Origin: a virus
Virus record (IMG/VR): IMGVR_UViG_3300014949_000001
Length of the DNA stretch: 43,035 nt
Reading direction: 5' to 3' (one strand)
Positions 130-20,104 of this stretch are shown here, piece by piece. The number at the start of each line of letters is the position of its first letter. Positions within the stretch are counted from its first letter, which is position 1. Both the position numbers and the translations under genes were made by a program. The notes beneath the pieces were generated by a model that did no database searches, was not told the origin of the DNA, and saw only the letters and a program-made list of their open reading frames with translations.

Positions 130-141
130 GGTCTTTCCTCC

Positions 142-1030: not shown

Positions 1031-1046
1031 CTTCCTCGTCCTCTCT

Positions 1047-1822: not shown

Positions 1823-1836
1823 GTGTTTTTCCTCCT

Positions 1837-2199: not shown

Positions 2200-2212
2200 C
2201 TTTCTGCCTCCT

Positions 2213-2506
2213 TCAGGTTTCTGCGGCGTGTCTCTTGCAGCGCCCGTCCACGCCTACGCCTTTGAACTTGCCCTTGTTCGCTCTCGCGCGGGCAGCGTCC
2301 AGCCGTGCCTTGTCGATGTCGTACTCGAATCTGCCGTTCGCATCCAGCTTGTCGGTCATGCCCCGGTTCAGCTCGCGGTATACGGAAGTCTCGTGCAGTC
2401 CCACCGCATCCGCGATGTCGCCCACCTTCCAGCCATCTTTGTACAGCCTTGCGATCTCCATGCGCACCTCGTCATCCATGACCTTGTATTTCAATTCAGT
2501 GCTCAA
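2213..2506 (-). CDS. Small helix-turn-helix DNA-binding protein (IS30-HTH/HTH_38-like fold)
   Basis: ...EIARLYKDGWKVGDIADAVGLHETSVYRELNRG... TTG start at 2506 is preferred (AAGGAG plus 8 nt). The upstream starts at 2551 and 2536 lie inside a terminator hairpin and its T-run. Confidence 0.6.
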   Translation of the reverse strand: MSTELKYKVMDDEVRMEIARLYKDGWKVGDIADAVGLHETSVYRELNRGMTDKLDANGRFEYDIDKARLDAARARANKGKFKGVGVDGRCKRHAAET

Positions 2507-2536
2507 CCTTCTCACTCCTTCCGCCCGTTTGAGCAT

Positions 2537-2581
2537 AAAAAAATATCGCAAGTCGAACCGTTTAGGTTCTTCTTGCGATAT
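2537..2581 (-). terminator. Rho-independent terminator downstream of the IS30-type transposase gene
   Basis: 10-bp stem ATATCGCAAG (2543-2552) / CTTGCGATAT (2572-2581) with an inner GAACC/GGTTC stem. On the minus strand it is followed by T7 (A-run 2537-2543). Confidence 0.75.
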
Positions 2582-3777: not shown

Positions 3778-3799
3778 CCCTCCGCCCGCAGGTGGAGGG
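3778..3799 (-). terminator. Terminator-like hairpin immediately after the XRE gene
   Basis: CCCTCC-N10-GGAGGG starts 1 nt after the stop at 3801-3803. On the minus strand it is followed by ATTTTGCATATATT. Confidence 0.55.
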
Positions 3800-3800
3800 A

Positions 3801-4043
3801 TTATTCTTTTCCCAGCAGCCAGTCCGTGCTCACGCGCAGCACCTCGGCCAGTATCGGCAGCTCAAAGTCCGGCACCACGCGCTTGCCGGTTTCAATTCTG
3901 CTCACGGCCATCTGTCCCAGCTGAAGGCCGGCCAGCTGCAGCTTCGCCGCCAGCTCTTCCTGTGACCAGCCCATACGCATTCGCGCCTCGCGCACCCGCT
4001 CGCCGCATAGATTAAAGCGATCTCCCAGTGTATACAGCCGCAC
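3801..4043 (-). CDS. XRE-family HTH transcriptional regulator (Cro/CI-like)
   Basis: 80 aa. GERVREARMRMGWSQEELAAKLQLAGLQLGQMAVSRIETGKRVV is a canonical HTH_3 pattern. GTG start with RBS GAGGAGG. Confidence 0.9.
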   Translation of the reverse strand: MRLYTLGDRFNLCGERVREARMRMGWSQEELAAKLQLAGLQLGQMAVSRIETGKRVVPDFELPILAEVLRVSTDWLLGKE

Positions 4044-4859: not shown

Positions 4860-4869
4860 TAACGAAGCA

Positions 4870-4899
4870 GAACACCGCCGGGTCTCCCCGGCGGTGTTC
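4870..4899. terminator. Bidirectional rho-independent terminator between convergent genes
   Basis: Perfect 13-bp stem GAACACCGCCGGG / CCCGGCGGTGTTC with loop TCTC. Followed on the plus strand by a T-rich stretch (TTGTCTTAT); the minus-strand side is only weakly T-rich (TGCTTCGTTAT). It lies between the stops at 4859 (+) and 4905 (-). Confidence 0.85.
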
Positions 4900-4904
4900 T
4901 TGTC

Positions 4905-7900
4905 TTATCCCTTCGGCAGTACCAGCCCGCCGGTGTAGCTTGTGCCATCCGGCAGCACGATGCCGCTCTCTGTCTCAGCGTTCAGCGCATCGTAGACTTT
5001 CTGCCCCACGCTGGTGCTGTACGGGTTTTTCGCAGGCTTCCAGCTCTTGTTTGCCAGCTGCCACAGTGCAGCCTGCTGCGTCACCGTCAGGCTCTGCCCG
5101 CCGCCTGCTCCCGGCAGTACGATACCGTTACCGCCGCCGCCCATAGAATCAATGGCCGCTTCCACCTCTTCCTGCTTGAACGTGCCGTTGCCGTCAAAAT
5201 CGAACTTCGGCAGCAGCTCCCGGAATGCGACATACGCTTCCGGTGTCACGCCGTAGCTGTATCCCGTCTGCAGCTTGCTGTACTCGCTCTCCTGCATCAT
5301 CTCGCCCAGCACGTTCATCTGCTCTTCGGTGCTCAAGCCCGCATCCACCACTGCGCGGTAAAGCTGCAGGTCGCTCACGCTGTCCTTGCCGTCCTCCGGC
5401 TCCAGTGCGTTCAGGCTGTTTGCCAGCTCATAGGCTGCGTCATCACTCAGTCCCGCCGAAACGAAGCTGTCGTACCGTGCTGCCTCCGCCGGAATCTGAC
5501 TGTAATACTTGAAGCAGTCCCGCACGGTTTCCGCCTGCTCTGCGGTCAGATTCTGACTGTTCACCCAGTGGGAGAACTCCACCGCCTTCTCTGATGCGCC
5601 GCTGTACTTCTCGTTGACGGTGGTGTACTCGTTCTGCACCTTCAGGAACGTGTCAAAGTCCAATCCCGCCTGCTCGAATGCCATAATGTCATCGTCTCGG
5701 CTCGTGGTGTAGCTGCCGTCTTCCTGCTTCTCGCCGAATAGGCATCTGTACATCTCCCGCTTCTCGTCGTCCGTCAGTGGGCTTTCCGCCAGCGCGGTGC
5801 GCTTTGCGTTGGATGCTTCTGCTCCTTTCAGACTTCCCGCGTTTTTAACATCCAGCAGCACCTGCGTCACCGCGCCCATGTCTGCGTCGCTGTCGGCCAG
5901 TGCGTCCATCAGCTCCCGCTCTTTGTCGGTTGCCATCAGCCCATAATAGACCACGCTCTTTCCGTCGCCGGATATGTCTGCGGCCTGCAGCACTCTTCGT
6001 TCCGCTTCGGCCTTGCTTTCCGTCTCCGTTTTCTTCGTTCCGCGCAGTTCCTTCAGCAGGTTGTACGCATCTTCTTCCGGCACGCCAGCCTCCGTCATTC
6101 CCTGATAGGCGGCAGTCTCCTTTGCGCCAAAGCTCTTGAATCCGCTCTCTACCCAGTCTCTTCCGGTCTTCAGTGAGGTTTTCCCGAACAGCATGGCTTG
6201 CCCCGCGTTCAGTGCAGCCTGCCACGGGTCATCGTTGTATACCGGGTACTGCAGCAGATCATTGCCTTCGGCATCCACCGAATAGCTTCCCCCTTTGATC
6301 GTTGCGCTCAGTCCTTGGTAAATCTTCTTCAGCTGTCCGCCGCCGAATGGAAGCGCCAGATAGGTCAGCGGGTTCATCAGTTCTTTGCCCGCCGTGGCCA
6401 GCTTCTTCTTGGTGCTCCATGTGTCGCTCGTCACAGTCTTCAGCAGGTTGTCCCAATCCGGCAGAGCGCTGCTGATCGGGACGCGCCCGCCGCCCAGCAC
6501 GCCGCCGATGAACGGCAATTCCTCCGCCACATCGCCCAGCGTTTCGGTCACGGTGTCGTAGGCGTTTTTCTTCTCCGTCTCAAAAGACGGCATATCGCCT
6601 GTCACAGCACCTACGCCCAGCTCCACAAGGTTCGGCAGCTCATATCCGGTGATGTCGCCCACGGTGTCGTTCAGGATGCCCAGCGGGTCAAGCGCCGGTC
6701 TGCGTCCGATGAAATATTCGTAGACTTCATCGTACAGCCATGCGCCGAGGAAGAACTTGAACAGCGCCATTGCCAGCGCCGCCAGCCCCTTCTCCTTGTA
6801 TGCGCGCGGCATATCCTTGAAGAGATAGCTCAGCTGGTTGTTGACCTCCAGCTGGAACTGCGTGAAGACCTTCGTCATCGGATTGCTCCGATTGAACAGT
6901 GTCGGCGTGGAGCCTTTGCTGCGGTCAGCCATCACGCCCGCCGTCCAGTTGTCCGCCTCCGTCATGGCGGCAGTCTCGCTCATCCCGCGCTTCAGGTTCT
7001 GGTTGTACCGCGCACGCACCAGACTTCCGGCGGTAAACTGGTCGATATACTCCATCGGCGAAGACATGGTGGCCGATGCTTTCTGTGCCCATGTCCGCAC
7101 CAGCGGGTCGCTGCCCTTACGGTTGGTCAGGAAGGCAGACGCATCCACAATGCCGTCGTTTTCTTTGAAGCTCTGCAGCGTCTGCCACATGCCGCGCAGC
7201 AGTTCCCCGCGGTCAAGCATCGCGCCTCCCTGCGTCAGCGGGATGAAGTTTGTCAGCCACGATGCCGGGTTAATGGCCACCATGTTGGCAGCCACGCGGC
7301 TCTCCAGTCCCTTCACAAGGTTGTACATGTTTCTGCCCAGTGCCTGCTCCATGTTGCGGTCTGCGCGGCTCTTCTTGTTGGCCAGCAGGTTGGTGTACTC
7401 CTCCAGCTCCACCACGAAGTTCGACAGCGCAAACCGCCCGTCTTCGTAGATGCTGTCGATCTTGCTGCGCTTCTCTTCCTCTGTCAGCCGCGTGTCGGCG
7501 TACACCGTGTCCACCTGCTTGCGGATGCCCTCGTCGCCGGTGCGGTAGCGCGCCTGCGTCGCCAGTGTCCGCAGCTTCTGGATGTTGTCGGTCTGATAGA
7601 TAACGTCCGCCACGCCCTCGATGTATCGGTCGAAGCCCTCCACCGCGTCATAGGCCGTGTCGAAGCCGAGGCGCTGCTGTGCATTGCCGAACCACTGGAT
7701 GCCCGGTCGGAAGGTGTGCGTCAGTCCGTTGATGGTGGTGGGCAGTGCCGTCACCTGTGTGTCAATGCCCAATGCCCTGCCGAACAGTCCCATGATGCCG
7801 TCGCCGTCACCCGGCTGGAAATGTGGGAAGTAGCCGCTGCGGTAGTTCACTGGCTCGTACCCGTTGCGTACTCTGGCCTCGTTCATCTGCTGGAACAGCT

Positions 7901-10900
7901 CGTTGTAGATGCTTCGGAACTCCTCCACCGCGTGCTCGATCTTTGCCTTGTCCAGCTGCGGGTTCTGCTTCCACATCTCCTGCACAATACCGCGCCAGTC
8001 GCTCAGCGTCTTGCCGTCCCGCTCCGCCATGCGCCCTCTGCTGTTCTCCAGCATCCGGATGTTGTCCATCGCTTCGCCCAGCAGCTGCACGGCGTGCGCT
8101 TCAGAGATTTTCCCCACCTTCTGCATGGCCTTCGTTTCTTTGGTGCTCAGGTTCAGCTCCTGTACCCGCTCGCGCATTTTGTTCTTCAGTCGCGTGGACT
8201 TTGCCTGCGCCTCGTGCACCGGTGTGAAATACTCTGCAATGATCTCCTGCGCCAGCTTCTTGTCCTTCACGATGTCAAGGATATTGCGCTCCATCGTTTC
8301 GCGGGAATAGAGAATACCAGCTTTCTTGTCCTTCCAGTCGTTTGCCGTCTTTAAGAACTTGTCCGCCTCTTCCCGCAGCTTCGCCCGCTGGCTCTGCTTG
8401 TACTCCGTCAGCAGCTTCACCAGCCGTTCATACTCCGTCGTAGCCTCGTATACAGCGGTGATGCCCTTCACATTGTCCGTCTTCGGGTCAAGGTGCTCCA
8501 GCTCGATCTCGCCCTTCAGCAGCCGTCCCAGCTGCACATTGTCGTGGTCGGTCAGCAGGTTCTTCGCTTTTGCTTTCTCCGATTCCCACCGCGCCTTCTT
8601 CAGCTGCTTGTAGGCTTCTGTGACCTGTTCCGTCGTCATCGGTGTCTCCGCCGCCGCGTTTGCCTTTGCCGCACGCTCGTCAGCATAGCGTTTCACAGTG
8701 CGCAGGTCTCCAATGGTGTCTCCGATGGCAGCATCAAAGTCATTCTTCGCCCAGCGCTTGAACTCCTCCGCATCCCGTCCATAGTATTCGCTCAGGGATT
8801 TCTCCGTTTTTTCGATGCTCTGCGCCACTTCAAACATGCGCACCAGCTGGTCAGCCGGATGCGTCAGATCATCCGGGAACAGCTCCGGTGCCATGTCCTG
8901 CAGCTCTTGATACGCCACATCCACCGGCAGCCCGCCCTCGTTGACGATGCGCAGCCGCCCGAAGGCGCTCTTTCTGAAGTCATTGAAGTCCGCAATGTCG
9001 TGCTTGTCTTCCTCCGATATGGTCACAGCCTGCGTGCGAAGGTGATCTTTGATGTCCTTATACTGCTGGTAGAACTCCTCATCCACCACAATGCCCTCGC
9101 TGTATGCCTGCTCAAACAGCTCCGCCGCCGTCTCTTCCGAAACGCGCCCGGTGGTCAGGTACTCCTCGCTGATCTGCTGCACGATCTTCTGCAGGTATTC
9201 CCTCTGTGCAAAGCGCGGCACGCTCAGCGCGCGGCTTACGCGCCCAACAAGGGCGTTTTCAGCCCGCTTCAGGTAGTCCTGTGCCTTCTTCGGCAGCGAT
9301 GTACGGATGCTGTTCTTCTTCTCTTCGTCCTCCGCCGTCGGCAGCGTCGCCTCCGCCGTTTCCTCCTCTGTGACGGAATATTGCAGCGTCCGTTCATCAG
9401 TTGGCATAGTGAAACGCTCCACCACCGCATCGCGGTTTTCATAGCTCAGCGGCAGCAGGTTATGCACCCGCACCTCCGCGTCAGACCATGTGCCACCGAA
9501 GTCCTGCCCGGTCAGCGTCAGCTCTCCGATCTCGCTCTTGGAATACTTGTTGGAGGAATCGAACAGCAGCACCGGGATTTGTTCCACGCCTGCATTCCGC
9601 ATGGCCACCGCGCGGTGCCGCCCCTCATGTCCCTGTACCTCTCCTGTTTCGTGGTCGATGTTCAGCTGGATAGGCTGCCACCTTGTGGCTTCGCCCAGTT
9701 TCTCCGCGTCCAGTTCCTTGCTGTGCTGCTCCACGATCTGCCGTCCGCCCTCGCTGGTGGTCAGGTTCAGGAAGTCATCCGGTGTCATGTAGGCAATGTA
9801 CGCCTTCGCATACTTCGGGCTGCTCTTTGCTGCATAGTCTCTCAGGTAGGTGTCAATGGTACTTTCCTTCAGTTTGACCGCTCCGTCATACTCTCCGCCT
9901 TCGCTGATAGAGAACCGGATGTCCGGATTGTCTGTCGGGTTTTCGTTGGTGACGCTCTTGATCTGTTCCGGGGAGAAGGCGATGTATACCGCGTCCGGCG
10001 TTCCGTTGTCGTCCATCTCGATGTCAGTGGACTTTACGATGATACCGTCATGCCCGCCTTCCTGCGCCCAGCGCTTCAGGTCTCCGTGCCGGATGTCTGC
10101 CTGTCCGATTGCACTGCCCCAGCCTTCGTCCTCAATGACAAGCGGGTTTTTCAGGTTCAAATAAACCTGCATGATTTCCCCCTTGCCCTTGTAGCCGGTC
10201 GCCTCTCGTGCATACCCGGTTGCATCCTCAATGTATGGGCTAAAGTAAAATCCGAGATCACTGCCTCTGTCTGCAAAGTTTTCCCCGATGTGTGCCTTAT
10301 CGAAGACCGTAAACTTTGTTCCGGTTCCATGGTAGAGCGTCAGCAGCCGTCCCTCGCCATCCACCGCTTTGCTGTCCTTGAAGAACTCTTGCTGTGCTTC
10401 CGTCAGCTGCCTGCCGTTACTGTCCTCGCTGATGGAGAACTTCACCCCCTCCAGCCCGTTCACCAGCGCCTTCCGCTGTTCGTCGTTGCCGGTCTCGTAC
10501 TGTATGATGTTCACGCCCGTGGCCGCCTTCACCGCTGCGATCTCTTCCGCCGGTGCGCTGGTTGGCGCGATGATGGCCGCCGCCTCGCTGAAGGGGACTA
10601 CTCTCTGCGCCTTCGCCTCGTAGTATCCCGTAGGGATGTTGGCTGCGCGGTCAATGAGCGCAAGGATGCTCTTGGCGTGCCCGTCGGATATGGCATAACC
10701 TTCCTTGCGGAACGCCGCCTTCACCGCCGCCACGGTTTTCTTCCCCTTGGCCGCCTCTGCAATGATGCGGCTCAGGTTCTGCTCTTCCTCGAAGGTGTTG
10801 TTGAACCGGTGTTTTGTGGTACGCAGCAGATCGTCCGTCACCCGGTCAAGATAGATGCCGAGGTCTCGCAGCGCCTTCTCGTGTTCCTCTTCGCTCACCG

Positions 10901-13900
10901 TGCGCAGTCTCGCCTCGTCCGCGTGCATCTCGTCCACGTTCCGATATTCCCGCGTGGCCGTTGCCGCCAGTGTCTCCGGTGTCACGCCGTACATGTTCGC
11001 GCCCTTGGCTGCCGCCATGTTCATGGCCTTCACGATGTTCTCCGCCGTGTAGTCCCAGTGTGTCTGTGCAAAGCTGCGTCTGCCGCTGTCGGTCACTGCA
11101 TCCTCGCCGTTGTAGATGCCCCGCTCGCCCAGCAGCCCCTCCAGCTGTGGCTGCACCCAGTCTTTCACCGTCCGCAGCGCATCATTCCAGCTTCCGCCCG
11201 GTGCGATCATCTCCATCATCTTGGCCGCCGTGGCTTCCTTGTCGATCTCGCCCGCGCTTCCGCCGCTCTCATAGAACTCCTGCGTGCTCCGGATGAAGTC
11301 CTCCACCCGGTTAGGGAACACATTGTTCTTCATGTAGTAGTCGATGCGCTTCTCCTTGGATTCCGGTCTGCGGTTCAGGAAGTTGGCGTGTTCCTCTGCA
11401 TAGACCTCCCGAATGGCCTGTTCCGCCGGTTTCATCTCTTCCGCCGTCAGGCGCTCGCCGGTCATCAGCTTCACCGCCAGCCGCGCCACTTCCTGTTCGC
11501 CCACCGCGTCGAGGTACCGCTGAATGGTCGCGTTGCTGAAGAAACGGTCGAACTGCTTGTCACGGTACACCGGTTCAAGGCTCTTGCCCTCGCTCTGAAG
11601 GAATGCCGCCTGTACCTCCGGATGGTTCGCCAGCTTGTCGGCGATCTCTTCCGGCTCCCATCTGGTCTCATTCTCCAATCCGATCTTGCCCAGCGTGCCG
11701 CTGCCTTGGAAAACGCCGCCTGCAAACTGGCTGGACAGGTTCTTGATGTTCTCATCGAACGCCCGCCGCGCCTCGTAGTTCACCTCGCGCTCCACCAGCG
11801 CATTGTCCTTTGTCGGTGTCCATGCGTCGCCGCCGTACACCTTGTTACGCGGGTCTGCCTCCGGGTCTATGGTGGCACGTGGGAACACTACGCTGGTATC
11901 TCCGTACTTCGTGTGCCCCTCCGCCGCGTCCACGATGGCCACGGAAGGGGATGGGATGCCGCCCCAGTTCAAGGCCGCGTCACGAATAACAGACCAGTCC
12001 TTGTTGTGTACGGCAATCAGGTCTTTCGTCCGCTCCACCGGCTCGTCGATGGAGAAGCGCTTCTTGACAGGCGGCAGCTTCTCTGCTACACTATCGTCAG
12101 AGACGGATGCAGTGCTTCTGGCAGCTCCCGGTGACGGGTTCGTGCTTATTGCTGCATCCGCCTCTTTTTCTGTAAAAGAGGTCGGCTGCAGGTTTAGCAC
12201 ATCGTACAGTGCCATGCTTCCATTTTTCTTCGTGCCTACCACCACGTCCGCCGTGTAGTCGTTTCCGCCCACTCGCAGCAACACATTACCTCTGGCGAAG
12301 TCCGTGATTCTGTCCTTGCGCGGATGGTTTAGCCCTTCGTTCACCCAGTCCGTCGTTGCGCGCAGAATTTCGTCGGCATTGTCCGTGGCGCTTAGCTTGT
12401 CCGCGTGCAGCTGCGGGTCGTTGTTATAGAGCCACTGCATGTACCGGGAGAAAGTCATCTCCTGTCTGCTTCTGCCGTCAATCTGAATTTCGTTGTTCCC
12501 CACGGTGATGCCGTTGGGGAACTTTTTCTTCAGATTCTCCTTGACGGTCTTCACCCAGTCTGCCTCCGGCACGCCCGCAAGGATGTCCTGTTCCACCTCC
12601 ACGAACGGCTTGTTGTCCGTGGTCTTTCCGATGGCGTAGCCATCCCCACTGTCAGCAAACACCGTGTCCTCGCTGCCATAGTCAGGCGATGTCTCCCGGC
12701 GCTCCTGCGCCGTCAGCTCCCGTCGCTTCGCAGTGTCCCGCGCCTCGATCTCTCCCGCCGTGTCGCGGTACAGGTCGGTCGGCATCCGGCCTCCGTTCCT
12801 CGCGTTGCGGTCGATGCTGTCCCGCAGGCTGTACCAGTCCCACACGCGGTCGCCGTACTGTTCCTCCAGCTGGTCTCTGCGCTCGTCGTATCGCACCCAC
12901 TCCGGCGGGTCTGGCTCGATCTGCTCCCATGTGTTCAGGTCAACCTTCCCGCGCGGCACCTTCGGTGCCATGGCATCCAGCTCTTCCATAGCCGCAACGA
13001 ACTGCGGGTCGCTCTCCCGTATCTGCTCATACTGTTCCTGCAGTCGTGCGCCCTCGCGCCGTTCCTCCGCCGTCCTGCTGTCAAATCCGTTTTCCATTCT
13101 CCGGTTCCAGTAGGCGGGGTTTGCCCCGCTGGCAAATCCTTCCCGGCTCTGGATGGCGTGCTGCACCTCATGGATGAGGGAGTTCAGCAGCGCCTCCGGC
13201 CTGTTCTTCAGGTCGCGGCTCAGCTCGATGCTGTCAAACTTCCGGCTGTATCCGCCGTTCTGTCCGTCCTCCAGCGTGTGGAATGTCACGCTCAAATCTG
13301 CCATATCCGGATAGGCTTCAAACAGCTCCGGCGCAGACACCAGCTCTCCCAGCGTGGTGTAGTTGGGAATATCCGCCGCGTCGGTGCGCAGCTGCATCCT
13401 GCTGTCGTTGATCTCGAAGCGCCACTTGCCGTCCATGCCTTCGTGCCAGCCCGTCGCCTTGCGGATGCTCTCCATGTCGGCTCCGGCCTGCTGCATCTCC
13501 TGCGCTTCCCGCAGGCTTTCAAGGTTCGCGCCGTTGGCGTTCGCCCCGGCATAGCTGTGCTGCAATCTGCCCAGCCCCTGCTGCATGTCGATCTCCGGGT
13601 CATACATGTCGTTGAACGCCGCTTCTGCATCCTCTTCAGAGATTTCCCCGTTTGCCATCTGCTGCTGCAGCGTGTCCATATTCTGCGCCTGCGCAGCGGC
13701 TCGCTGCTGCATGTCTGCGGTGAAGCTGCTCTGTGTCTCCTGCAGGGCGCTCTGGTAATAATTCTTCGCCTTCGTCAGGAACGCCCGCTCCTGCGCGTCG
13801 CTGTTGCCCAGCTTTGCCAGCAGCTCGTTGATAAACTGCAGGATGCGCCGTCCCAGCGTCCGGTTCTGCTGCACCATGGCGCGGATGCTTTGCTCGTCGG

Positions 13901-16900
13901 TCAGCAGATACTTTTCCACATACTCCGCCACGATCTCCGAATCAATGGCCGCGTTGTCCGTCAGGTTCTCGCCGTGCCGCGCATACAGTTCCGCCTTCTG
14001 CTGCCGCATGGCCTGCAGGTCTCCGCCGGTCTGCCGGATGCGGTTCAATACCAGCTTCTGCAAATCGCTGTAGCTTCCGCTTGCCTCGATGCTGTGCGTC
14101 AGTTCGTGGCTGATGATCTGCGCCACCGGGTTCTGGCTGCGTGCGTTGACATAGATTTTTCCGTCTGCCGGGTTGTAGTAGCCGTTGTGCATTCCTCCGG
14201 TGCTATCCGCGCCTTCGTCGAAGAACACCACCTCGCGCCCCACGATGTTGGCGATGCGCTGTACATTGGCGATGGTGTCCTCGTCCACGCCCGCAAGAAT
14301 GCCCGTGCGTTCCGTTTCCGTCTCGGCTCTCGCAGCCCTCTGCCGCGTTTCCGCCTGTTCCGCCGTCGGCAAAACGCCCAGCCGATCAGCCTCCATGGTC
14401 TCTCTCAGCGGCGCAGGTTGGCGTTCCTGCTCCGTTGTGCGCTGCTGCGTCTGCGTTTCTGCCTGCTCAGCTGTCGGCAGTTCCGTTCCGCCGGTCTCTT
14501 CCGCCGTCGGCAGCACCACGCCTTTCGTCTGTTCCTGAGCGGTTCCGGTTTGTCCTGCAGTTGGTTCCGTCCCTTCCAGCATTCTGGTGGTCTCCGCAAA
14601 CAGTCTGCCGATCTCCGTATCCGTCAGCTTCTTGCCCTTGTTCAACTTGTTCTTCAGCTCTTGTCCCAGCTTGTATGCCTCGCTGTTTTCATCAAGGGTC
14701 TCCGCCGTCTCGATGATGCTGTTCACCATCTCGTCGCCCATCTTGCGCAGCGTGCTGCCGGTCTGCTGGTATCCGGCGTTTCGCTGCACCGTTCCGATGC
14801 CCACACCCGCCGTGGCCATGGTGCCGCCGGATAGTGCGCCGCCGAGGAAGTCCAGCCCCATCTCCGCCGCCTGCTGCGCCACTGCAAGGCCGAAGGCTTC
14901 GCCCTCCGTCTTGCCCTCCGCCATATATGCGTCGATGGTCTGCTGCCACTCGCTCTTGTCCTTGGCGATGAGGATGTCGGCAAACAGGTTGATGAAGTCG
15001 CTGCCCACTTCCTCCGCGCCTTCCGTGAGCGCATTCTTCAGGATATATTTGATGGCTCCGTCTTCCCACTTGCTTTTCAGCAGCGCCTCGATGCTGAACT
15101 TCTCTGTAAACACTTCCGCCGCACCCGCGATGGTTCCCAGTGTGAACGCCTGCGTGTCTGTCAGTCCTCTATCCTTCGCTGCAATGGTGGCATCCGCCGC
15201 CGCACCGGTGCCCATAACGGCAAGAGACATTCCCTCGCTCAGTGCGCCGCCTCCGCCGAATCCGCCCGTGATCGCAGTATTCAGCAGGAAGTCGCCCATA
15301 CTCATGCCGGTCTGGTACAGGAAGCTGCCCGCCTGCCCCCAGTTCCCGCTCTGTTCAATGGTCTCCGCCACCTGATTGCGAATGGCGTTGTTGGCGTAGG
15401 AAAAGCGGTTGTACGCCGCATTCTGGTCAATGGTTCCGGTGCCGAGATAGTCCGCCGCTTGTCCGAGATAGCTCAGTCCCTTCATCGGGGAAGTCAGCAC
15501 GCTGAACACACTGCTGCCCACCGGAGATTCCTTTGCATAGTCTCTCCAGTACGCCTCTTCTTCCTGCCGCTGGCGATAGTTCAGATCGCCCGTCAGGTAG
15601 TCATAGTAGGCATGTGCCGCGTCCTTGCCCTGCGAGGCGTACAGATAGTTGAAGATGGCCACTTCTTCGTCGGTCATCTGCTGCGATTCCGATCTGTTTT
15701 CCGTCGCCATGCCGAACAGAGCGCCCAGCGGGTTGCTGTCCCCGCCATAGTTCGCCCCGGCTTGATTTGTGATGTACGCGCCCGCCTCGCTGTTGCCGTT
15801 GATGTACTCATACAGCGGGTCATCCCAGCCGCTGGCATCGTCACTGTAGTTATCAAACAGAACGTCGATGTTGGAGCGCTTCTTTCCGTTTGCCGTGCTC
15901 TTGTATTGGCTCTTTTCGCCAAAGTCTTCCGCGCTGGTCAGGTCGGCATACTGGTAATATTTCTTCCAGTCCAGCTCCTCCTGCAGCAAATCCGCCGCGC
16001 CCTGTGCCTCCGCGATCTTGCCGTCCATGGCCTTGGCCTGCGCCTGCAGCGCCTGTGCCTGCTGGCTCCATTGCATCAGCTCATTCGTCCCGCCGCGCCG
16101 GGAAGATACCTTGTTCATCAGCTGCTGTGCCTGCTTCTGCAGCGCCTTTTGCTGCTCTTGCAGCCGCTTCACATTGCTCTGCGCCGCCGTCAGGTCGGCG
16201 TTTATGGCGTTCTCGTCCGTTCGGATGGTCTTCTTCCAGTTGTCGAACAGGTTCTGCTGCTCTGTGCGGTAGGCTTCATAGTCCTCCGCCGCCTGCTTGT
16301 ACTGGTTCCACGCAGGCTCATAGGCGGCATAAGCGGCATCCACCGCTTTCGTCGCGTCTTCATACTGTTTCAGCGTGCTGGCATATTCCTGCTGCATCTG
16401 CTGCACAATCCCGGACGCAATAGCGCTGCTGCCCGCGTACTGCTGCAACTCCGGCAGCTTCCCACTCAGCTCGTTCAGCTTCGTATAGAGATTGCCCGCC
16501 GTCTCATTGGCGTTCTGCAGCTCCTCCGCCTTCTTTTTGGCGTTCGCCTCATAGGTGGTCACGGTGTTGTATTTCCGCTCCATATCCATGCCCAGCTTCG
16601 GCTGCGAATAGTATTTCCCATCCGCCGTCGCGCCCACGAGGTAGTTCTGATAGCTGCCGTACTTCTGCTGCATGGCAGTGGAGCGGTTGTACTCGCTCTC
16701 CGTTAGCTTATCAGATGCAGCTGCGCGTGCGGCATAGTTCTGCCGCACGCTGCTGTCATACTCGTCTCTGGTTTTCCCGCTCCGCTCGAAGGCTGTGTTG
16801 CCGCTGGCAGGGTTCTTCTGCGTGTCTGCCTTGCCCAGCTTCTGATTGCTCCACGTGGAAAAGGTCTGCGCCTTTTGCAGCGTGCCGGTCGTCTGTCTCA

Positions 16901-16934
16901 TTTTGTTGTTGCTCCACTCAGAAAAGGATGCCAT
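4905..16934 (-). CDS. Giant 4009-aa polyvalent virion/ejection protein (coiled-coil and Gly-rich hydrophobic N-region, two HExxH domains, ART-like, ParB-like, long C-terminal structural region)
   Basis: Uninterrupted 12,030-nt ORF with RBS TAAGGAGG. It is the last gene of the structural operon and ends at a strong terminator. Motifs are listed in the sub-features below. Confidence 0.9.
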   Translation of the reverse strand: MASFSEWSNNKMRQTTGTLQKAQTFSTWSNQKLGKADTQKNPASGNTAFERSGKTRDEYDSSVRQNYAARAAASDKLTESEYNRSTAMQQKYGSYQNYLVGATADGKYYSQPKLGMDMERKYNTVTTYEANAKKKAEELQNANETAGNLYTKLNELSGKLPELQQYAGSSAIASGIVQQMQQEYASTLKQYEDATKAVDAAYAAYEPAWNQYKQAAEDYEAYRTEQQNLFDNWKKTIRTDENAINADLTAAQSNVKRLQEQQKALQKQAQQLMNKVSSRRGGTNELMQWSQQAQALQAQAKAMDGKIAEAQGAADLLQEELDWKKYYQYADLTSAEDFGEKSQYKSTANGKKRSNIDVLFDNYSDDASGWDDPLYEYINGNSEAGAYITNQAGANYGGDSNPLGALFGMATENRSESQQMTDEEVAIFNYLYASQGKDAAHAYYDYLTGDLNYRQRQEEEAYWRDYAKESPVGSSVFSVLTSPMKGLSYLGQAADYLGTGTIDQNAAYNRFSYANNAIRNQVAETIEQSGNWGQAGSFLYQTGMSMGDFLLNTAITGGFGGGGALSEGMSLAVMGTGAAADATIAAKDRGLTDTQAFTLGTIAGAAEVFTEKFSIEALLKSKWEDGAIKYILKNALTEGAEEVGSDFINLFADILIAKDKSEWQQTIDAYMAEGKTEGEAFGLAVAQQAAEMGLDFLGGALSGGTMATAGVGIGTVQRNAGYQQTGSTLRKMGDEMVNSIIETAETLDENSEAYKLGQELKNKLNKGKKLTDTEIGRLFAETTRMLEGTEPTAGQTGTAQEQTKGVVLPTAEETGGTELPTAEQAETQTQQRTTEQERQPAPLRETMEADRLGVLPTAEQAETRQRAARAETETERTGILAGVDEDTIANVQRIANIVGREVVFFDEGADSTGGMHNGYYNPADGKIYVNARSQNPVAQIISHELTHSIEASGSYSDLQKLVLNRIRQTGGDLQAMRQQKAELYARHGENLTDNAAIDSEIVAEYVEKYLLTDEQSIRAMVQQNRTLGRRILQFINELLAKLGNSDAQERAFLTKAKNYYQSALQETQSSFTADMQQRAAAQAQNMDTLQQQMANGEISEEDAEAAFNDMYDPEIDMQQGLGRLQHSYAGANANGANLESLREAQEMQQAGADMESIRKATGWHEGMDGKWRFEINDSRMQLRTDAADIPNYTTLGELVSAPELFEAYPDMADLSVTFHTLEDGQNGGYSRKFDSIELSRDLKNRPEALLNSLIHEVQHAIQSREGFASGANPAYWNRRMENGFDSRTAEERREGARLQEQYEQIRESDPQFVAAMEELDAMAPKVPRGKVDLNTWEQIEPDPPEWVRYDERRDQLEEQYGDRVWDWYSLRDSIDRNARNGGRMPTDLYRDTAGEIEARDTAKRRELTAQERRETSPDYGSEDTVFADSGDGYAIGKTTDNKPFVEVEQDILAGVPEADWVKTVKENLKKKFPNGITVGNNEIQIDGRSRQEMTFSRYMQWLYNNDPQLHADKLSATDNADEILRATTDWVNEGLNHPRKDRITDFARGNVLLRVGGNDYTADVVVGTKKNGSMALYDVLNLQPTSFTEKEADAAISTNPSPGAARSTASVSDDSVAEKLPPVKKRFSIDEPVERTKDLIAVHNKDWSVIRDAALNWGGIPSPSVAIVDAAEGHTKYGDTSVVFPRATIDPEADPRNKVYGGDAWTPTKDNALVEREVNYEARRAFDENIKNLSSQFAGGVFQGSGTLGKIGLENETRWEPEEIADKLANHPEVQAAFLQSEGKSLEPVYRDKQFDRFFSNATIQRYLDAVGEQEVARLAVKLMTGERLTAEEMKPAEQAIREVYAEEHANFLNRRPESKEKRIDYYMKNNVFPNRVEDFIRSTQEFYESGGSAGEIDKEATAAKMMEMIAPGGSWNDALRTVKDWVQPQLEGLLGERGIYNGEDAVTDSGRRSFAQTHWDYTAENIVKAMNMAAAKGANMYGVTPETLAATATREYRNVDEMHADEARLRTVSEEEHEKALRDLGIYLDRVTDDLLRTTKHRFNNTFEEEQNLSRIIAEAAKGKKTVAAVKAAFRKEGYAISDGHAKSILALIDRAANIPTGYYEAKAQRVVPFSEAAAIIAPTSAPAEEIAAVKAATGVNIIQYETGNDEQRKALVNGLEGVKFSISEDSNGRQLTEAQQEFFKDSKAVDGEGRLLTLYHGTGTKFTVFDKAHIGENFADRGSDLGFYFSPYIEDATGYAREATGYKGKGEIMQVYLNLKNPLVIEDEGWGSAIGQADIRHGDLKRWAQEGGHDGIIVKSTDIEMDDNGTPDAVYIAFSPEQIKSVTNENPTDNPDIRFSISEGGEYDGAVKLKESTIDTYLRDYAAKSSPKYAKAYIAYMTPDDFLNLTTSEGGRQIVEQHSKELDAEKLGEATRWQPIQLNIDHETGEVQGHEGRHRAVAMRNAGVEQIPVLLFDSSNKYSKSEIGELTLTGQDFGGTWSDAEVRVHNLLPLSYENRDAVVERFTMPTDERTLQYSVTEEETAEATLPTAEDEEKKNSIRTSLPKKAQDYLKRAENALVGRVSRALSVPRFAQREYLQKIVQQISEEYLTTGRVSEETAAELFEQAYSEGIVVDEEFYQQYKDIKDHLRTQAVTISEEDKHDIADFNDFRKSAFGRLRIVNEGGLPVDVAYQELQDMAPELFPDDLTHPADQLVRMFEVAQSIEKTEKSLSEYYGRDAEEFKRWAKNDFDAAIGDTIGDLRTVKRYADERAAKANAAAETPMTTEQVTEAYKQLKKARWESEKAKAKNLLTDHDNVQLGRLLKGEIELEHLDPKTDNVKGITAVYEATTEYERLVKLLTEYKQSQRAKLREEADKFLKTANDWKDKKAGILYSRETMERNILDIVKDKKLAQEIIAEYFTPVHEAQAKSTRLKNKMRERVQELNLSTKETKAMQKVGKISEAHAVQLLGEAMDNIRMLENSRGRMAERDGKTLSDWRGIVQEMWKQNPQLDKAKIEHAVEEFRSIYNELFQQMNEARVRNGYEPVNYRSGYFPHFQPGDGDGIMGLFGRALGIDTQVTALPTTINGLTHTFRPGIQWFGNAQQRLGFDTAYDAVEGFDRYIEGVADVIYQTDNIQKLRTLATQARYRTGDEGIRKQVDTVYADTRLTEEEKRSKIDSIYEDGRFALSNFVVELEEYTNLLANKKSRADRNMEQALGRNMYNLVKGLESRVAANMVAINPASWLTNFIPLTQGGAMLDRGELLRGMWQTLQSFKENDGIVDASAFLTNRKGSDPLVRTWAQKASATMSSPMEYIDQFTAGSLVRARYNQNLKRGMSETAAMTEADNWTAGVMADRSKGSTPTLFNRSNPMTKVFTQFQLEVNNQLSYLFKDMPRAYKEKGLAALAMALFKFFLGAWLYDEVYEYFIGRRPALDPLGILNDTVGDITGYELPNLVELGVGAVTGDMPSFETEKKNAYDTVTETLGDVAEELPFIGGVLGGGRVPISSALPDWDNLLKTVTSDTWSTKKKLATAGKELMNPLTYLALPFGGGQLKKIYQGLSATIKGGSYSVDAEGNDLLQYPVYNDDPWQAALNAGQAMLFGKTSLKTGRDWVESGFKSFGAKETAAYQGMTEAGVPEEDAYNLLKELRGTKKTETESKAEAERRVLQAADISGDGKSVVYYGLMATDKERELMDALADSDADMGAVTQVLLDVKNAGSLKGAEASNAKRTALAESPLTDDEKREMYRCLFGEKQEDGSYTTSRDDDIMAFEQAGLDFDTFLKVQNEYTTVNEKYSGASEKAVEFSHWVNSQNLTAEQAETVRDCFKYYSQIPAEAARYDSFVSAGLSDDAAYELANSLNALEPEDGKDSVSDLQLYRAVVDAGLSTEEQMNVLGEMMQESEYSKLQTGYSYGVTPEAYVAFRELLPKFDFDGNGTFKQEEVEAAIDSMGGGGNGIVLPGAGGGQSLTVTQQAALWQLANKSWKPAKNPYSTSVGQKVYDALNAETESGIVLPDGTSYTGGLVLPKG
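9435..9827 (-). other. Domain in giant ORF: ParB/sulfiredoxin-like
   Basis: IDHETGEVQGHEGRHRAVAMRNAGVEQIPVLLFD. GHEGRHR is encoded at about 9612-9632 (aa ~2435). Confidence 0.45.
9930..10367 (-). other. Domain in giant ORF: ADP-ribosyltransferase-like (ART-PolyVal-like)
   Basis: RLLTLYHGTGTKFTVFDKAHIG...GSDLGFYFSPYIEDATGYA...VYLNLKNPL. LYHGT starts at about 10337 (aa ~2200). Confidence 0.5.
13035..13547 (-). other. Domain in giant ORF: second HExxH domain
   Basis: TGWHEGMDGKWRFEINDS...LLNSLIHEVQHAIQSREGF. HEVQH is encoded at about 13158-13172 (aa ~1255). Confidence 0.45.
13935..14297 (-). other. Domain in giant ORF: zincin-like metallopeptidase (HExxH no. 1)
   Basis: VVFFDEG...HNGYYNPADGKIYVNARSQNPVAQIISHELTHSIE. 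HELTH is encoded at about 14094-14108 (aa ~943). It resembles the metallopeptidase module of phage and conjugative-element polyvalent proteins. Confidence 0.55.
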
Positions 16935-16946
16935 ACCGTGTCCTCC

Positions 16947-18482
16947 TTACTTGCTGGCGGCGTATTCGCAGTAATCTTTGATATAGTCCGCGTAGCTGTT
17001 GTAGTTCTTTACCTCGGTACCGCCGGTGCCGTACTGCTGCAGCGATGCCTTCCTGCGGCTCCACTCGCTCTTGGTCATCAGGCCGGAGCGCACGCTGCCA
17101 TCCACACCCGCCGCCTTCATGTAGGCAATGGCACTGTCGTAGTCGGTCACGCCGGAGATATTCCCGCCGCCGGAATCGCCGCCGCTCTTGGTGAATCCCG
17201 CCTGTGTCAGCATTGCCTCCGTAATGCCGGGATTGCTCTGCAGGATGCCGTTCCATGTGTCAGCGTCGATGTTCGTTCCGTAGGCCGCCTTCAGCGCTGC
17301 GATGTCCTGCGCGCTCAGCCCGGTCGTCTCGGTCTCCTGCGGCGTTGTGTTTCCGCCGCCTCCACTGCTTCGGCTTCCTCTGGAAGGGGACTTGCCCGCC
17401 GCCGTGGTGTTAAATCGGTTCAGCGCCGCTGCATCCGGGTTGATGCCCAGTTCCCGCAGTCCGGAGTAGTCGCCGTACTGTGCAGCCAGCTGTGCCTTCT
17501 CTAGTGCCTCGCCGCGAAGTCCCGTCTGCTGGTTGATCTCGTCAAGCAGGTTCTGGTAGCTGAAACTGCGGTCTGTGTTGTACTGGTTCAGCTCGTTCAG
17601 ATACTTCGTGTAGTCCAGCTGCTCCAGCCCGCTCGCCGTCTGCAGGTCGTTGTTGATGCGGTTGTACTCGTCCATCCATGCCTGATAGTCGAAGGCACGG
17701 TTGGTGTTGTACTGCTGCATCTCGTTGAGGAACTTGTCGTAGTCGCTCTGCTCCGCACCCTGCACCGCGCCGAGGTCAGAGAGCTTCATGTTGTAGTCGT
17801 TCATGTACTTGTTGTAGGCCAGCTGGTAAAGCTCCGGGATTTTGTCCGTCATCTGGCTGGCGTAGTAGTCGCCCGCCTGCGCCGCCGCGTTCACCGCGTA
17901 GCTGGACGGAATGCCTCCGCTGGCTGCCGCCGCCGCGCCCAGCGCGTCCTGCGTGGCTCTCTGGCCTTCCCGCGTGTACTGCTTGCGGTACTGGCTGTAA
18001 AGCTGGTCGTTCTCCGGGTCATAGCTGAAGTCCTTCCGGTTCACGATCTGGCTAAGCAAGTCCTGAATGGTCGCGTCGTAGCGGTTGTTGTATTCCGGCT
18101 GCGCCTCGCCGTAGGAATAGCTGCCGTAGCCCAGCTGCTTGTCCAAAAGGCCGCTGATGGTGTCGGCATAGTTGTTTTTGTAGGTCGGCGCTGCGCTGCT
18201 CTGGAAGTCCTTGGGGGATAGCGGGTCAAGGTAGAAGTTTGCGCCCCTCTGCCCGCCGGTGTACCCGCCGTAGCTGGAGCGGATGCCCTCCGCGCCGAGG
18301 TTGGCCAGCGCCCGTGCCTCGTCCGTGGCAGCGTTTTTGTAGTCCTGCTTGTACTTCAGGATGCTCATTCCTGCGTCCGGGTTCTGCTGCGCCAGCTTCA
18401 GGTCTGCGTCAGAGAACTGCCCGCCGAGGCCGCTGCTCTGCATTGCTTTCTGAAAATCGTCGTATGTGTATCTGTTTGCCAT
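16947..18482 (-). CDS. Hypothetical virion protein, Q/N/Y-rich with internal duplication
   Basis: 511 aa from the ATG at 18482 (MANRYTYDDF..., RBS AAGGGG). Contains the repeat DY(D/T)K(F/Y)LNE(M/L)(Q/N)QYNT(N/D)R(A/S)F(D/S)YQ. Sits between tail genes and the giant ORF. Confidence 0.6.
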   Translation of the reverse strand: MANRYTYDDFQKAMQSSGLGGQFSDADLKLAQQNPDAGMSILKYKQDYKNAATDEARALANLGAEGIRSSYGGYTGGQRGANFYLDPLSPKDFQSSAAPTYKNNYADTISGLLDKQLGYGSYSYGEAQPEYNNRYDATIQDLLSQIVNRKDFSYDPENDQLYSQYRKQYTREGQRATQDALGAAAAASGGIPSSYAVNAAAQAGDYYASQMTDKIPELYQLAYNKYMNDYNMKLSDLGAVQGAEQSDYDKFLNEMQQYNTNRAFDYQAWMDEYNRINNDLQTASGLEQLDYTKYLNELNQYNTDRSFSYQNLLDEINQQTGLRGEALEKAQLAAQYGDYSGLRELGINPDAAALNRFNTTAAGKSPSRGSRSSGGGGNTTPQETETTGLSAQDIAALKAAYGTNIDADTWNGILQSNPGITEAMLTQAGFTKSGGDSGGGNISGVTDYDSAIAYMKAAGVDGSVRSGLMTKSEWSRRKASLQQYGTGGTEVKNYNSYADYIKDYCEYAASK

Positions 18483-18496
18483 AGTCCGCCCCTTTC

Positions 18497-20104
18497 TTAT
18501 AGTTCGCTGCCGTTGTACACTTCCCGCACCAGCGAATACAGTCTGCATCCGCCGTTTCCGGTCATCCGGATGCGGAAGTGGTCGCACCGGCGCGGGATGA
18601 TCGGCAGATAGTAGCTGCGCTTCACTTCCGTCTGCAGCGTCTTCACCGTCCTCCACACGCCGTCGCTGTCGAACTGCATGTCGATCTGCACGCTTGCATC
18701 TTCATCCAGCTCCAGCCGCAGCAGCAGCTTTCCGATTCCCTTCTTCTCCGGTGTCGCCGCGGAAGAGGACGAATAGGTGGTGTATTCGTAGAAGTCCGCC
18801 CACTCCGCCTTCCATGCCACCATCGCTTCCTGCACCGCGCCTTGCGGCACGCTTCTGGCGTTGCCGTTCATCCAGAGCTTGCCGGTCGCATCAAGGCAGT
18901 ACAGCTCCTCATTCCAGCCCCAGCCCACAGCCTGCGTGCTGTCCTCCCGGTGCCACAGGTTGGTGCGGGTGTCGAAGGCAAACAGCTGATACACCCCCGT
19001 CGTGTCCTGCAGCGAGACGAAATACTTTGTCCCGTCGCTGCCCGCCACGCCGTTCCGGAAGCGCTGCGTGCCGAATGCCGCGCTCACGCTCTGCGGGATG
19101 CCGCCGCTCCATGCCACGATGCCTGTCCGGCTCAGGTAGAAAAGCGTCTCCCCCGCAATGGCAAGGCTCTCGTCGCTGCCTTTTTCCACGCCCAAGCTGG
19201 CGCTGCCCATCACCTGAAAATTGGACGGTTTGTCGCCGTATACCTTGTAGATGTGTTCCTCCTTGAAGAAGCACGGATAGCCGAGATAGCTGCAGCACGC
19301 CGTAAAATCTCCGGTGCTTGCCACATCCACCGCAAAGCTGTCCGTCGCCACGCCGTCAAATATATTCCAGTTGAAGATGTCGCCCAGCTTGCTGGCGTAG
19401 ATCGTGTCGCCCTTGCATCCCCACAGCCGGTTTTCATTCTCGCAGATATAGTCTAACTCTGGAACCGTGCGGCTGAGTTGCAATATTTCGCTGTCTCCGC
19501 CGTCCGAGATGGTGAAGGTGTTCTCATAGAAGCGCAGGTTGTCCCCGTCAATCTCCCGGATAATGGCGGTCTTGTTGTTCTCCGGATGCGTCGTCGCGCC
19601 GGAGATCGTCACCGCGTCGCCCTCGTTGAACTTTGCTCCCGCACCCACAGCGTAGATGGTGTTGGCTTTTGCTTCCTCGCCCGCGTAGGTGCCGTCCTGA
19701 ATCTTCGCGCTCCCGCTCCAGCTGCTTTCCAGTGCGCCGAAGTCGCCCGTCAGGCGGTTGTAGTATTTCTTGTCCGGCAGGATGACGATGTACGCGCCGA
19801 GGCTCGTGAACTTCTTGTGCCCGTCGGTGACGATGCCCTTCAGCTCGCCGTCGGCGTAAAAGCCCGTTCCATCCGCCCAGTACAGCCCGTCGTGGGCATA
19901 TAAACCGTTCGGTTTCGTCAGCGTCCGACATGTCCACCGCCTTGTACGCGGGCTTAAAAGGGGATAGAAGTCGCTCGTCAGATTCTCCATGTCCCACAGG
20001 TCTCCGTTCTCTGCTGCGAGCGTGTGGTTGTATCCGCCGAACTTTACCTGCTTGCGCTTGCTGATGCCGTCGCCGTAGGCCATGGATGGCAGCCCGGTCG
20101 CCAT
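18497..20104 (-). CDS. Hypothetical structural protein (possible tail hub or nozzle, beta-rich)
   Basis: 535 aa. Its start overlaps the upstream stop (TAATG). The functional call is based on position among the tail genes only. Confidence 0.5.
   Translation of the reverse strand: MATGLPSMAYGDGISKRKQVKFGGYNHTLAAENGDLWDMENLTSDFYPLLSPRTRRWTCRTLTKPNGLYAHDGLYWADGTGFYADGELKGIVTDGHKKFTSLGAYIVILPDKKYYNRLTGDFGALESSWSGSAKIQDGTYAGEEAKANTIYAVGAGAKFNEGDAVTISGATTHPENNKTAIIREIDGDNLRFYENTFTISDGGDSEILQLSRTVPELDYICENENRLWGCKGDTIYASKLGDIFNWNIFDGVATDSFAVDVASTGDFTACCSYLGYPCFFKEEHIYKVYGDKPSNFQVMGSASLGVEKGSDESLAIAGETLFYLSRTGIVAWSGGIPQSVSAAFGTQRFRNGVAGSDGTKYFVSLQDTTGVYQLFAFDTRTNLWHREDSTQAVGWGWNEELYCLDATGKLWMNGNARSVPQGAVQEAMVAWKAEWADFYEYTTYSSSSAATPEKKGIGKLLLRLELDEDASVQIDMQFDSDGVWRTVKTLQTEVKRSYYLPIIPRRCDHFRIRMTGNGGCRLYSLVREVYNGSEL

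Follow-up and report, generated by a model that had tools for sequence, protein, structure and literature searches.

A 4009-residue polyvalent protein with exchangeable enzyme cassettes in the genome of a podovirus-like phage of gut Clostridia

Introduction

The virus record IMGVR_UViG_3300014949_000001 of IMG/VR, analyzed here as one stretch of 43,035 nt (the window), contains an open reading frame (ORF) of 12,030 nt, and the question raised by this locus is what kind of protein its 4009 codons specify and at which step of infection a phage would use it. A first-pass annotation, made from the sequence without database searches, had described a multi-enzyme polyvalent virion protein lying where a tape-measure or internal-core gene would be. 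We confirm the polyvalent architecture by three Pfam domains specific to such proteins, PBECR5, LPD23 and ART-PolyVal, each of which matches above its gathering threshold. The protein is the largest member seen of an already known kind of protein and does not constitute a new kind of system. The reading that we favor, with a probability of roughly 0.7 and by analogy with better characterized phages, is that the protein would be packaged in the capsid and injected with the DNA as a scaffold that delivers enzyme cassettes.

In a cell that has just been infected, polyvalent proteins presumably act before any other phage product, yet very few of them have been the subject of experiments. Iyer, Burroughs, Anand, de Souza & Aravind (2017; PMC5512222) set out the rationale for their packaging and autoproteolysis; the proteins were predicted to be packaged, injected and possibly autoprocessed, and PBECR5, LPD23 and ART-PolyVal are all families defined from them. 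New here are the size of the family to which the giant protein belongs, an unannotated "chassis" common to polyvalent proteins, and cassettes that are bounded by a junction motif and include a natural variant lacking the ADP-ribosyltransferase (ART).

Results

The giant ORF is a single intact gene

The uninterrupted 4009-codon frame of the first-pass annotation was recovered with its exact coordinates and ATG start (Table 1). The two ends of the window overlap exactly over 99 bp (1-99 = 42937-43035), indicating a circular assembly and a complete genome of ~42,936 bp, 28% of which (12,030/42,936 nt) is taken up by this ORF, as had been estimated. All genes of the window are carried by the minus strand. 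At the base composition of the window, the chance of a stop-free run of 4009 codons is ~1e-61.

An assembly or annotation artefact, either a chimeric contig or separate genes fused by sequencing errors, could be suspected on two grounds: the equivalent region consists of several genes in the relatives L018 and L017, and many database matches are shorter than 900 aa. However, the frame is unbroken (4013-4030 codons) in at least eight independent near-identical IMG/VR contigs, and a contig from a Butyricicoccaceae metagenome-assembled genome (MAG) is 100% identical to the giant ORF across the region compared. Together with the chance probability given above and a median length of 2781 aa among 150 family representatives (see below), these copies effectively refute the artefact, and a chimera or frameshift, which had been named beforehand as refuting evidence, is not borne out. 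The giant ORF is a genuine single gene.

The Shine-Dalgarno region of this gene shares nucleotides with the stop codon of the 569-aa gene upstream, an arrangement that points to translational coupling of the two. At the other end, the hairpin that follows immediately on the stop codon marks the giant ORF as the close of its transcription unit, in agreement with its earlier description as the last gene of an operon.

Three tiers: scaffold, cargo and chassis

The giant protein has three tiers: a conserved N-terminal scaffold of ~880 aa, followed by the first of two HExxH modules (Zn1), which many relatives have in common; a variable cargo region at aa ~1126-2523; and a conserved all-alpha C-terminal chassis of ~1450 aa. 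As read from sequence homology, the cargo consists of LPD23 with a DUF6782-type zincin (Zn2), an LPD3-like domain, PBECR5 with a partner module, ART-PolyVal, and a rare module with a ParB motif.

Table 1. Features of the giant polyvalent protein gene and its upstream neighbors. Window positions are given with the corresponding residues of the giant protein; the fifth column counts the representatives, among the best 150 of the chassis family, that carry the module.
Feature	Window position	Strand	Residues (aa)	Representatives (of 150)	Basis and remarks
Giant polyvalent protein gene	4905..16934	-	1-4009		4009 aa; ATG start; 445.7 kDa; pI 4.8
Ribosome-binding site AAGGAGGA	16935..16950	-			Shine-Dalgarno 6 nt 5' of ATG; overlaps stop codon of 569-aa gene
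Helical segment, putative coiled coil	15915..16577	-	120-340		A/Q/E/K-rich, Pro/Gly-poor composition; matches phrog_22978
Gly-rich, moderately hydrophobic conserved segments, N-scaffold	14790..15269	-	556-715	65
Acidic linker	14298..14537	-	800-879		three (V)LPTAE repeats; fourth LPTAE at aa 2531
First HExxH module (Zn1)	13560..14297	-	880-1125	89	HELTH 943-947; unnamed family
LPD23	13389..13559	-	1126-1182	44	Pfam PF18838, E 5.7e-25, above gathering threshold
Second HExxH module (Zn2)	12615..13388	-	1183-1440	44	HEVQH 1255-1259; DUF6782-type putative metallopeptidase
LPD3-like domain	12216..12560	-	1459-1573	16	PF18798, E 2.7e-4, 21.6 bits vs gathering 27 (sub-threshold)
PBECR5 RNase	11373..12062	-	1625-1854	4	PF18814, E 9.1e-50, 170.2 bits vs gathering 25; starts at RFSIDE
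PBECR5 partner module	10443..11372	-	1855-2164	4	in same 4 representatives as PBECR5; no Pfam match
ART-PolyVal ADP-ribosyltransferase cassette	9918..10442	-	2165-2339	23	bounded by KFSISE and RFSISE; missing in L012
Rare ParB/Srx-motif module	9366..9917	-	2340-2523	1	GHEGRHRAVA...IPVLL motif alone; ends at QYSVTE
All-alpha chassis, family-defining	5715..9347	-	2530-3740	150	3112 cluster representatives at E ≤ 1e-3; hydrophobic helix aa 3383-3401
Less conserved C-terminal tail	4908..5714	-	3741-4009		EF-hand-like loop and G[IL]VLP repeats
Terminator-like hairpin	4869..4900	-			14 bp, GC-rich; starts 5 nt past giant ORF stop
569-aa ORF, immediate upstream neighbor	16947..18656	-			no family match
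phrog_511 "internal virion protein" gene	18497..20104	-			E 2.1e-77; upstream, with 569-aa ORF in between

By its profile score, PBECR5 is the strongest enzymatic domain of the protein. It was absent from the earlier list of modules, which Pfam shows to be incomplete by this RNase, by LPD23 and by the sub-threshold LPD3 match; LPD3 is common in relatives. The ART-like module read at aa ~2200 is upheld by a match to ART-PolyVal (PF18760) at aa 2192-2334, with E 1.6e-23 and 84.4 bits against a gathering threshold of 31.2 over profile positions 1-139 of 140, and by 96% conservation of the strand-1 histidine, H2202. The ParB/Srx-like call, which depends on the motif GHEGRHRAVAMRNAGVEQIPVLL (aa ~2436) in a module with just four detectable homologues, stands as far as the motif is concerned, but membership of the family is unconfirmed: no Pfam ParB/Srx match was obtained at E ≤ 10 in five family members, and no ParB/Srx chain in a PDB profile search at E ≤ 10; a Pfam search with the segment itself was likewise negative. 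The sole match in these searches, Disabled-1, is spurious.

Both HExxH motifs are genuine and under selection. The two modules are zincin-like, with moderate confidence, although the evidence for them differs. In the second, H1255, E1256 and H1259 are each at least 90% conserved, and the module nearly always travels with LPD23; AlphaFold2 (AF2) models the pair with a local confidence (pLDDT) above 90. Neither HExxH segment of the window protein has a direct Pfam match, DUF6782 included, whereas homologues of the LPD23-HExxH region (E 1e-27 to 5e-52) score 25-30 bits with DUF6782 (PF20573; gathering threshold 27), exactly over HE[IL]QH. Transitive homology thus points to a DUF6782-type module at the position, aa ~1255, where a second HExxH had been noted. 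A profile of the HExxH region matches the zincin IrrE (E 0.0019), and the top ten Foldseek matches are all minimal zincins (PprI/IrrE, jannalysin, SPRTN, selecase and HtpX), though over 50-60 residues only, at non-significant E values of 0.15-2, and in a comparison that does not distinguish the first module from the second.

For the first module, read earlier as a zincin at aa ~943, the motif holds, since the core NPVAQIISHELTHSxE is kept across ~100 homologues, but a family assignment does not: there is no Pfam match, and AF2 confidence is low over this part. We consider its zincin assignment modestly supported. MPTase-PolyVal, one of the families suggested beforehand, can be discarded for both modules, with no match at E ≤ 1 in either segment and none among 61 homologues.

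In the N-terminal scaffold, A, E, K and Q make up 47% of aa ~120-340 and Pro and Gly are nearly absent, as expected from the coiled coil of ~330 aa proposed earlier; the segment is shorter than that (~220 aa), and the coiled coil itself is putative. The Gly-rich hydrophobic segments of the same description were located at aa 556-586 and 693-714. The linker motif LPTAE occurs 32 times in the family against 0.4 expected, and marks both the linker between N-scaffold and Zn1 and the start of the chassis.

The C-terminal tail contains a canonical EF-hand calcium-binding loop, DFDGNGTFKQEE, at aa 3912-3923 (window 5166-5201), with weak Pfam EF-hand matches; EF-hand domains are strong in relatives and weak in the window protein. 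The protein has three G[IL]VLP repeats at its very C-terminal end.

The chassis defines a large family of giant proteins

The family was defined by an exhaustive HMMER search with aa 2540-3739, its members being represented by clusters at 50% identity. Of the 3112 cluster representatives given in Table 1, 1693 are retained at E ≤ 1e-30; nearly all are giant, with the chassis C-terminal. The maximum length among the best 150 is 3891 aa, and the 63 complete genomic copies span 787-4019 codons (median 2684). The window protein is longer than all of the former and all of the latter, in keeping with its first description as unusually large.

AF2 predicts the chassis (aa 2841-3720) to be all-alpha with good confidence (pLDDT 86, pTM 0.82), and of the further C-terminal hydrophobic helices noted before, one is present (Table 1). 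This conserved domain of ~1200 aa is missing from Pfam, NCBIfam and the PDB, with no match to Pfam or NCBIfam models or to PDB sequences and profiles. Foldseek against the PDB gave a best E of 0.26 at a TM-score of ~0.1, its top matches being unrelated helical membrane transporters. Against BFVD, a collection of predicted viral structures, the chassis returned 94 significant matches, located in downstream fragments of other giant phage proteins. These carry names taken from their cargo (PolyVal ART, LPD3, LPD38, nuclease, DNA methylase, MuF-C and EF-hand). Gut, freshwater and marine viromes are their sources, and they often share just 10-14% identity at TM-scores of 0.4-0.5. The chassis is thus a C-terminal module that is widespread among phage polyvalent proteins and has no name so far.

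The chassis also occurs as a stand-alone gene. In L018 (3295-12448) it is an 815-aa product and the last virion gene, followed by holin and lysin genes and preceded by genes for 635, 201, 392 (SLT domain) and 693 aa, among which an HNH homing-endonuclease gene is inserted. In L017 (1971-5796), genes of 442 and 844 aa match aa 2530-2758 and 2796-3629 of the window protein.

The cargo of relatives draws on the same vocabulary, including LPD3, MuF_C, ADPrib_exo_Tox and DUF6782. A Pfam census of 18 diverse members found MuF_C, SHOCT, EF-hand, ADPrib_exo_Tox and DUF6782 as cargo, with MuF_C, a domain associated with head proteins, in six of the 18.

Cassettes vary between relatives and are bounded by a junction motif

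Pairwise comparison by blastp shows how the tiers vary. L009 keeps aa 46-1435 (63% identity) and aa 2456-3983 (83%) and has a different middle; with L013 and L016 the common part is the C-terminal ~1450 aa only. L012 is 96% identical to the window protein and lacks exactly aa 2172-2338, the 167-aa ART cassette. The comparison with related genomes that the first-pass annotation had called for therefore finds middle modules swapped in one relative and a single cassette gone in another.

Four copies of the motif [RKQ][FY]S[IV]x[ED], at aa 1626, 2165, 2340 and 2518, coincide exactly with the edges of the PBECR5, ART and ParB-like cassettes and with that of the chassis. In the 150 representatives it was observed 101 times against 4.7 expected from shuffles, a count that is inflated by sequence relatedness. 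Sequences on its upstream side fall into 33 unrelated clusters and those on its downstream side into 29, which marks it as a true junction motif and not as part of one domain. The deletion junction in L012 reads GIKFSISE/DGEYDG, which indicates recombination between two FSISE-coding microhomologies. The coding sequence of the junction motif offers microhomology for the gain and loss of cassettes. A reading of the motif as a prohead-protease site (L/I-x-E type) was also considered; no protease gene was identified in the window, and this reading is speculative.

The gene lies in the predicted ejection-protein slot of a podovirus-like genome

Along the coding strand, the genome begins with replication genes, the small and large terminase subunits (TerS, TerL), a P22-type portal, two hypothetical genes, a major capsid protein (MCP) and a tail protein. 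A diversity-generating retroelement (DGR), with target gene, Avd, template repeat (TR) and reverse transcriptase (RT), follows, and then an endolysin, a needle-like (gp58-like) protein and a 127-aa ORF. The phrog_511 gene, the 569-aa hypothetical gene, the giant ORF, two small hypothetical genes, a transposase-like gene and a gene for a single-stranded DNA-binding protein (SSB) complete the order.

TerS, TerL, portal, MCP and internal virion protein thus all lie upstream on the same strand, as is the case for polyvalent proteins, and the succession of needle-like protein, 127-aa ORF, phrog_511, 569-aa ORF and giant ORF has the position of a podovirus ejection cluster. The phrog_511 gene upstream places the giant gene in the ejection-protein slot, and a phrog_511 homologue is also found upstream of the giant ORF in MT835607. 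By position alone, the 569-aa ORF is probably another internal virion protein. No NCBIfam model matched the giant protein or either of the two upstream neighbors, and a phmmer search of the PDB with these neighbors returned nothing.

No tail tube, sheath, tail-assembly chaperone, baseplate or tape-measure family was found in any ORF of the window, in accordance with the earlier view of a genome free of recognizable tube, sheath and tape measure. The gene complement suggests the layout of a short-tailed phage, with the giant gene in the slot of an ejection or internal protein and not in that of a tape measure; of the two places first offered for it, gene order supports the internal core, but a podovirus-type genome has no tape-measure slot. 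We regard it as very improbable that the ORF belongs to a long-tailed phage and encodes its tape measure, with enzymatic domains added on. There is a superficial likeness, in the N-terminal helical segment, the Gly-rich hydrophobic segments and a peptidase-like module, as well as a weak, non-significant profile match to a tape-measure chain (E 0.13) and BFVD neighbors automatically labeled "Myoviridae sp." or "Siphoviridae sp." Besides the missing long-tail families and the presence of a P22-type portal and a needle-like gene, length speaks against it. Tails measure ~0.15 nm per tape-measure residue, so that 4009 aa would mean a tail of ~600 nm. The 167-aa cassette difference between near-identical strains, the range of 787-4019 codons across the family and the mostly globular domains are further points against a tape measure.

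Relatives are found nearly exclusively in MAGs of Oscillospiraceae, Butyricicoccaceae and other Clostridia. Some sit within contigs of 100-575 kb, and are therefore prophages. This is a temperate, podovirus-like phage whose hosts are gut Oscillospiraceae/Butyricicoccaceae. The family of the giant protein comprises more than 3000 clusters at 50% identity and is found mostly in uncultured prophages of gut Clostridia, Oscillospiraceae among them. Window 2213-3704, which follows directly on the giant gene in the downstream direction, contains a phrog_4646 "transposase" gene (350 aa, E 2e-124) and an adjoining small DNA-binding paralogue. The window showed neither a tyrosine nor a serine integrase, though relatives are integrated in large bacterial contigs; the region may be a lysogeny module that works through a transposase.

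Discussion

Packaging and injection as the favored role

Packaging and injection of the giant protein are inferred from two precedents, gp47 of phage phi24B and the virion RNA polymerase (vRNAP) of phage N4. One to a few copies would be packed in the capsid beside the neighboring internal virion proteins. To judge by the ejection-protein content of P22, a capsid with room for a 43-kb genome would accommodate a few copies of a protein of 446 kDa. Upon infection, the giant protein would leave by way of the portal and tail, either before the DNA or together with it, with the scaffold and chassis supplying the functions of packaging, translocation and spanning of the envelope. The enzymatic cassettes would then go to work, just as infection begins, in the cytoplasm of the host, where the PBECR5 RNase and the ART could target host or defense factors. 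The zincin modules might set cassettes free through self-cleavage, for which the junction or LPTAE motifs are possible sites, or might attack targets in the host or its wall.

A more ambitious version of this proposal is that the chassis and N-scaffold form a generic effector delivery vehicle, common to polyvalent proteins of gut, freshwater and marine viromes, in which the junctions serve both as recombination joints and as release sites cut by the zincins after injection. We offer it tentatively, as a possibility that is on balance doubtful. If the junctions do have this dual purpose, the giant protein would be a phage counterpart of polymorphic-toxin architecture, and a means of bringing a programmable enzyme cocktail into Gram-positive gut bacteria. 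The modular layout and the natural ART-minus variant, L012, open the function of cassettes, cleavage at junctions and the role of the chassis to experiment.

Several observations weigh against packaging and injection, or against parts of the mechanism. Detection in a virion is not known for any member of the family, and no relative was found among cultured phages: nucleotide and tblastn searches of 50,697 phage records gave one match, the unannotated fecal contig MT835607, and a few more for the neighboring genes. The podovirus morphotype derives from HMM matches (P22_portal, E 2e-11; needle-like, E 2e-6), and the hosts are monoderm, so that ejectosome models from Gram-negative hosts transfer imperfectly. 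The chassis has no sequence or fold match to solved ejection proteins (such as T7 gp15/gp16 or the cyanophage A4 pre-ejectosome). In the cargo, the catalytic Tyr and Asp of the ART H-Y-D triad are not unambiguously assignable, the left breakpoint of the L009 replacement (aa ~1435) coincides with no junction motif, and proteolysis at junction motifs is pure inference.

Two of these points, the want of direct virion evidence and a chassis unlike solved ejection proteins, would also fit a polyprotein that is never packaged and works, late or early, within the producing cell, in anti-defense or host takeover, or is released at lysis. So would the place of the gene at the border between the late module and the transposase-like/SSB early region, in a genome coded on a single strand, where membership of the late operon is unproven. 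We nevertheless think this unlikely. The gene is apparently coupled in translation to the late genes that precede it and has an internal-virion-protein gene upstream, and in L018 the stand-alone chassis is found among virion genes, just before the lysis cassette. Relatives carry MuF_C as cargo, phi24B gp47 provides a precedent for packaging, and a non-structural late product would hardly warrant 28% of a 43-kb genome.

A virion protein on the outside of the particle, such as a tail-tip or wall-penetrating device whose zincins degrade peptidoglycan or surface proteins, would suit the monoderm Clostridia hosts and the two metallopeptidase-like modules, and in L018 a gene with an SLT domain adjoins the split version. 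Yet the giant protein contains no beta-rich, Ig, lectin or fiber-type domains, its RNase and ART cargo require cytoplasmic targets, and long all-alpha or helical regions such as it has are found more typically in ejection proteins; there are, moreover, separate genes for the tail, the needle and DGR-diversified receptor binding. An external location is accordingly improbable in our judgment, and we retain packaging and injection as the better account.

Comparison with known systems

Like the polyvalent proteins of Iyer et al. (2017), the giant protein combines unrelated effectors (ART-PolyVal, a PBECR RNase and zincin-like modules) and LPD domains in one polypeptide, and is encoded beside virion genes in a portal-terminase phage. 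In contrast to them, it has no MPTase-PolyVal, ArdC-N, SNF2 or methylase domains, its ~1450-aa chassis and its N-scaffold match no Pfam LPD family, and it has an explicit junction motif and a documented cassette deletion.

The best experimental analogue, in our view, is gp47 of the Stx phage phi24B (vb_24B_48, 2807-2811 aa), likewise a giant LPD polyvalent protein of a podovirus and encoded by the last gene of the late region. Its 2811 residues include LPD and MuF-C domains; mass spectrometry found it in abundance in virions, and it has been proposed to be an encapsidated ejection protein (bioRxiv 10.64898/2026.04.10.717836). It differs in its LPD domains, in the lack of a junction motif, in its Gram-negative host and in its T=9 capsid. 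Homology between the two was rejected, with an hhalign probability of 0.2 and no phmmer match; the want of similarity between the chassis and gp47 also weighs against the favored role.

The vRNAP of N4 (gp50) and those of other schitoviruses are likewise giant multi-domain podovirus proteins. The N4 enzyme (~3500 aa) is described as encapsidated and ejected with partner ejection proteins (PMC13434306), and some relatives carry ART or MPTase domains (PMC5512222). Unlike these, the giant protein has no detected RNA polymerase module and bears RNase, ART and peptidase cargo, and there is no homology.

With T7 gp14/15/16 and P22 gp7/20/16 the giant protein shares its place in the gene order, behind the tail and needle genes where the virion module ends, and a largely alpha-helical make-up, whereas it is 3 to 7 times larger, carries cytoplasmic effector enzymes and has no sequence or fold similarity to any solved ejection protein. 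The lytic-transglycosylase partner of the chassis in L018 resembles the N-terminus of T7 gp16. There is finally an analogy with polymorphic toxin systems, which also join a conserved delivery scaffold to exchangeable effectors by a short demarcating peptide motif ("VENN" in CdiA and "PxxxxDPxGL" in Rhs) that doubles as a recombination joint. The giant protein departs from these in that its cargo is internal between scaffolds, with several cassettes per protein, its vehicle is a phage, and no immunity genes are evident.

Other features of the genome

The Amidase_2 endolysin gene (21559-22323) lies in the middle of the virion block, between the DGR and the needle-like gene, and not after the last structural gene. 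The DGR is complete (window 23801-27460 and 39197-39871), in which the RT occupies 23801-24919, an Avd-like gene 25316-25771 and the TR 25148-25280. Its first variable repeat (VR1, 25808-25940) lies at the 3' end of a tail-associated gene with Big_3/Big_2/DUF6273 domains, and all 21 mismatches between TR and VR1 fall at TR adenines (21/21). A second variable repeat (39203-39335) sits at the 3' end of an ORF (39197-39871) that belongs to the early genes, at a distance of 13 kb; here 23 of 37 mismatches fall at A.

The tail-protein gene (27457-29499) contains an array with a 63-nt period (28487-28727) and a 96-nt pair at 27718 and 28081, and coincides with the local GC maximum (0.667) and with extreme AT skew. 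In the early region, a cluster at 40236-42867 encodes MazG-like nucleoside triphosphate (NTP) pyrophosphohydrolase, nucleoside 2-deoxyribosyltransferase-like and PAPS-reductase-like proteins, and may be a nucleotide or DNA-modification module.

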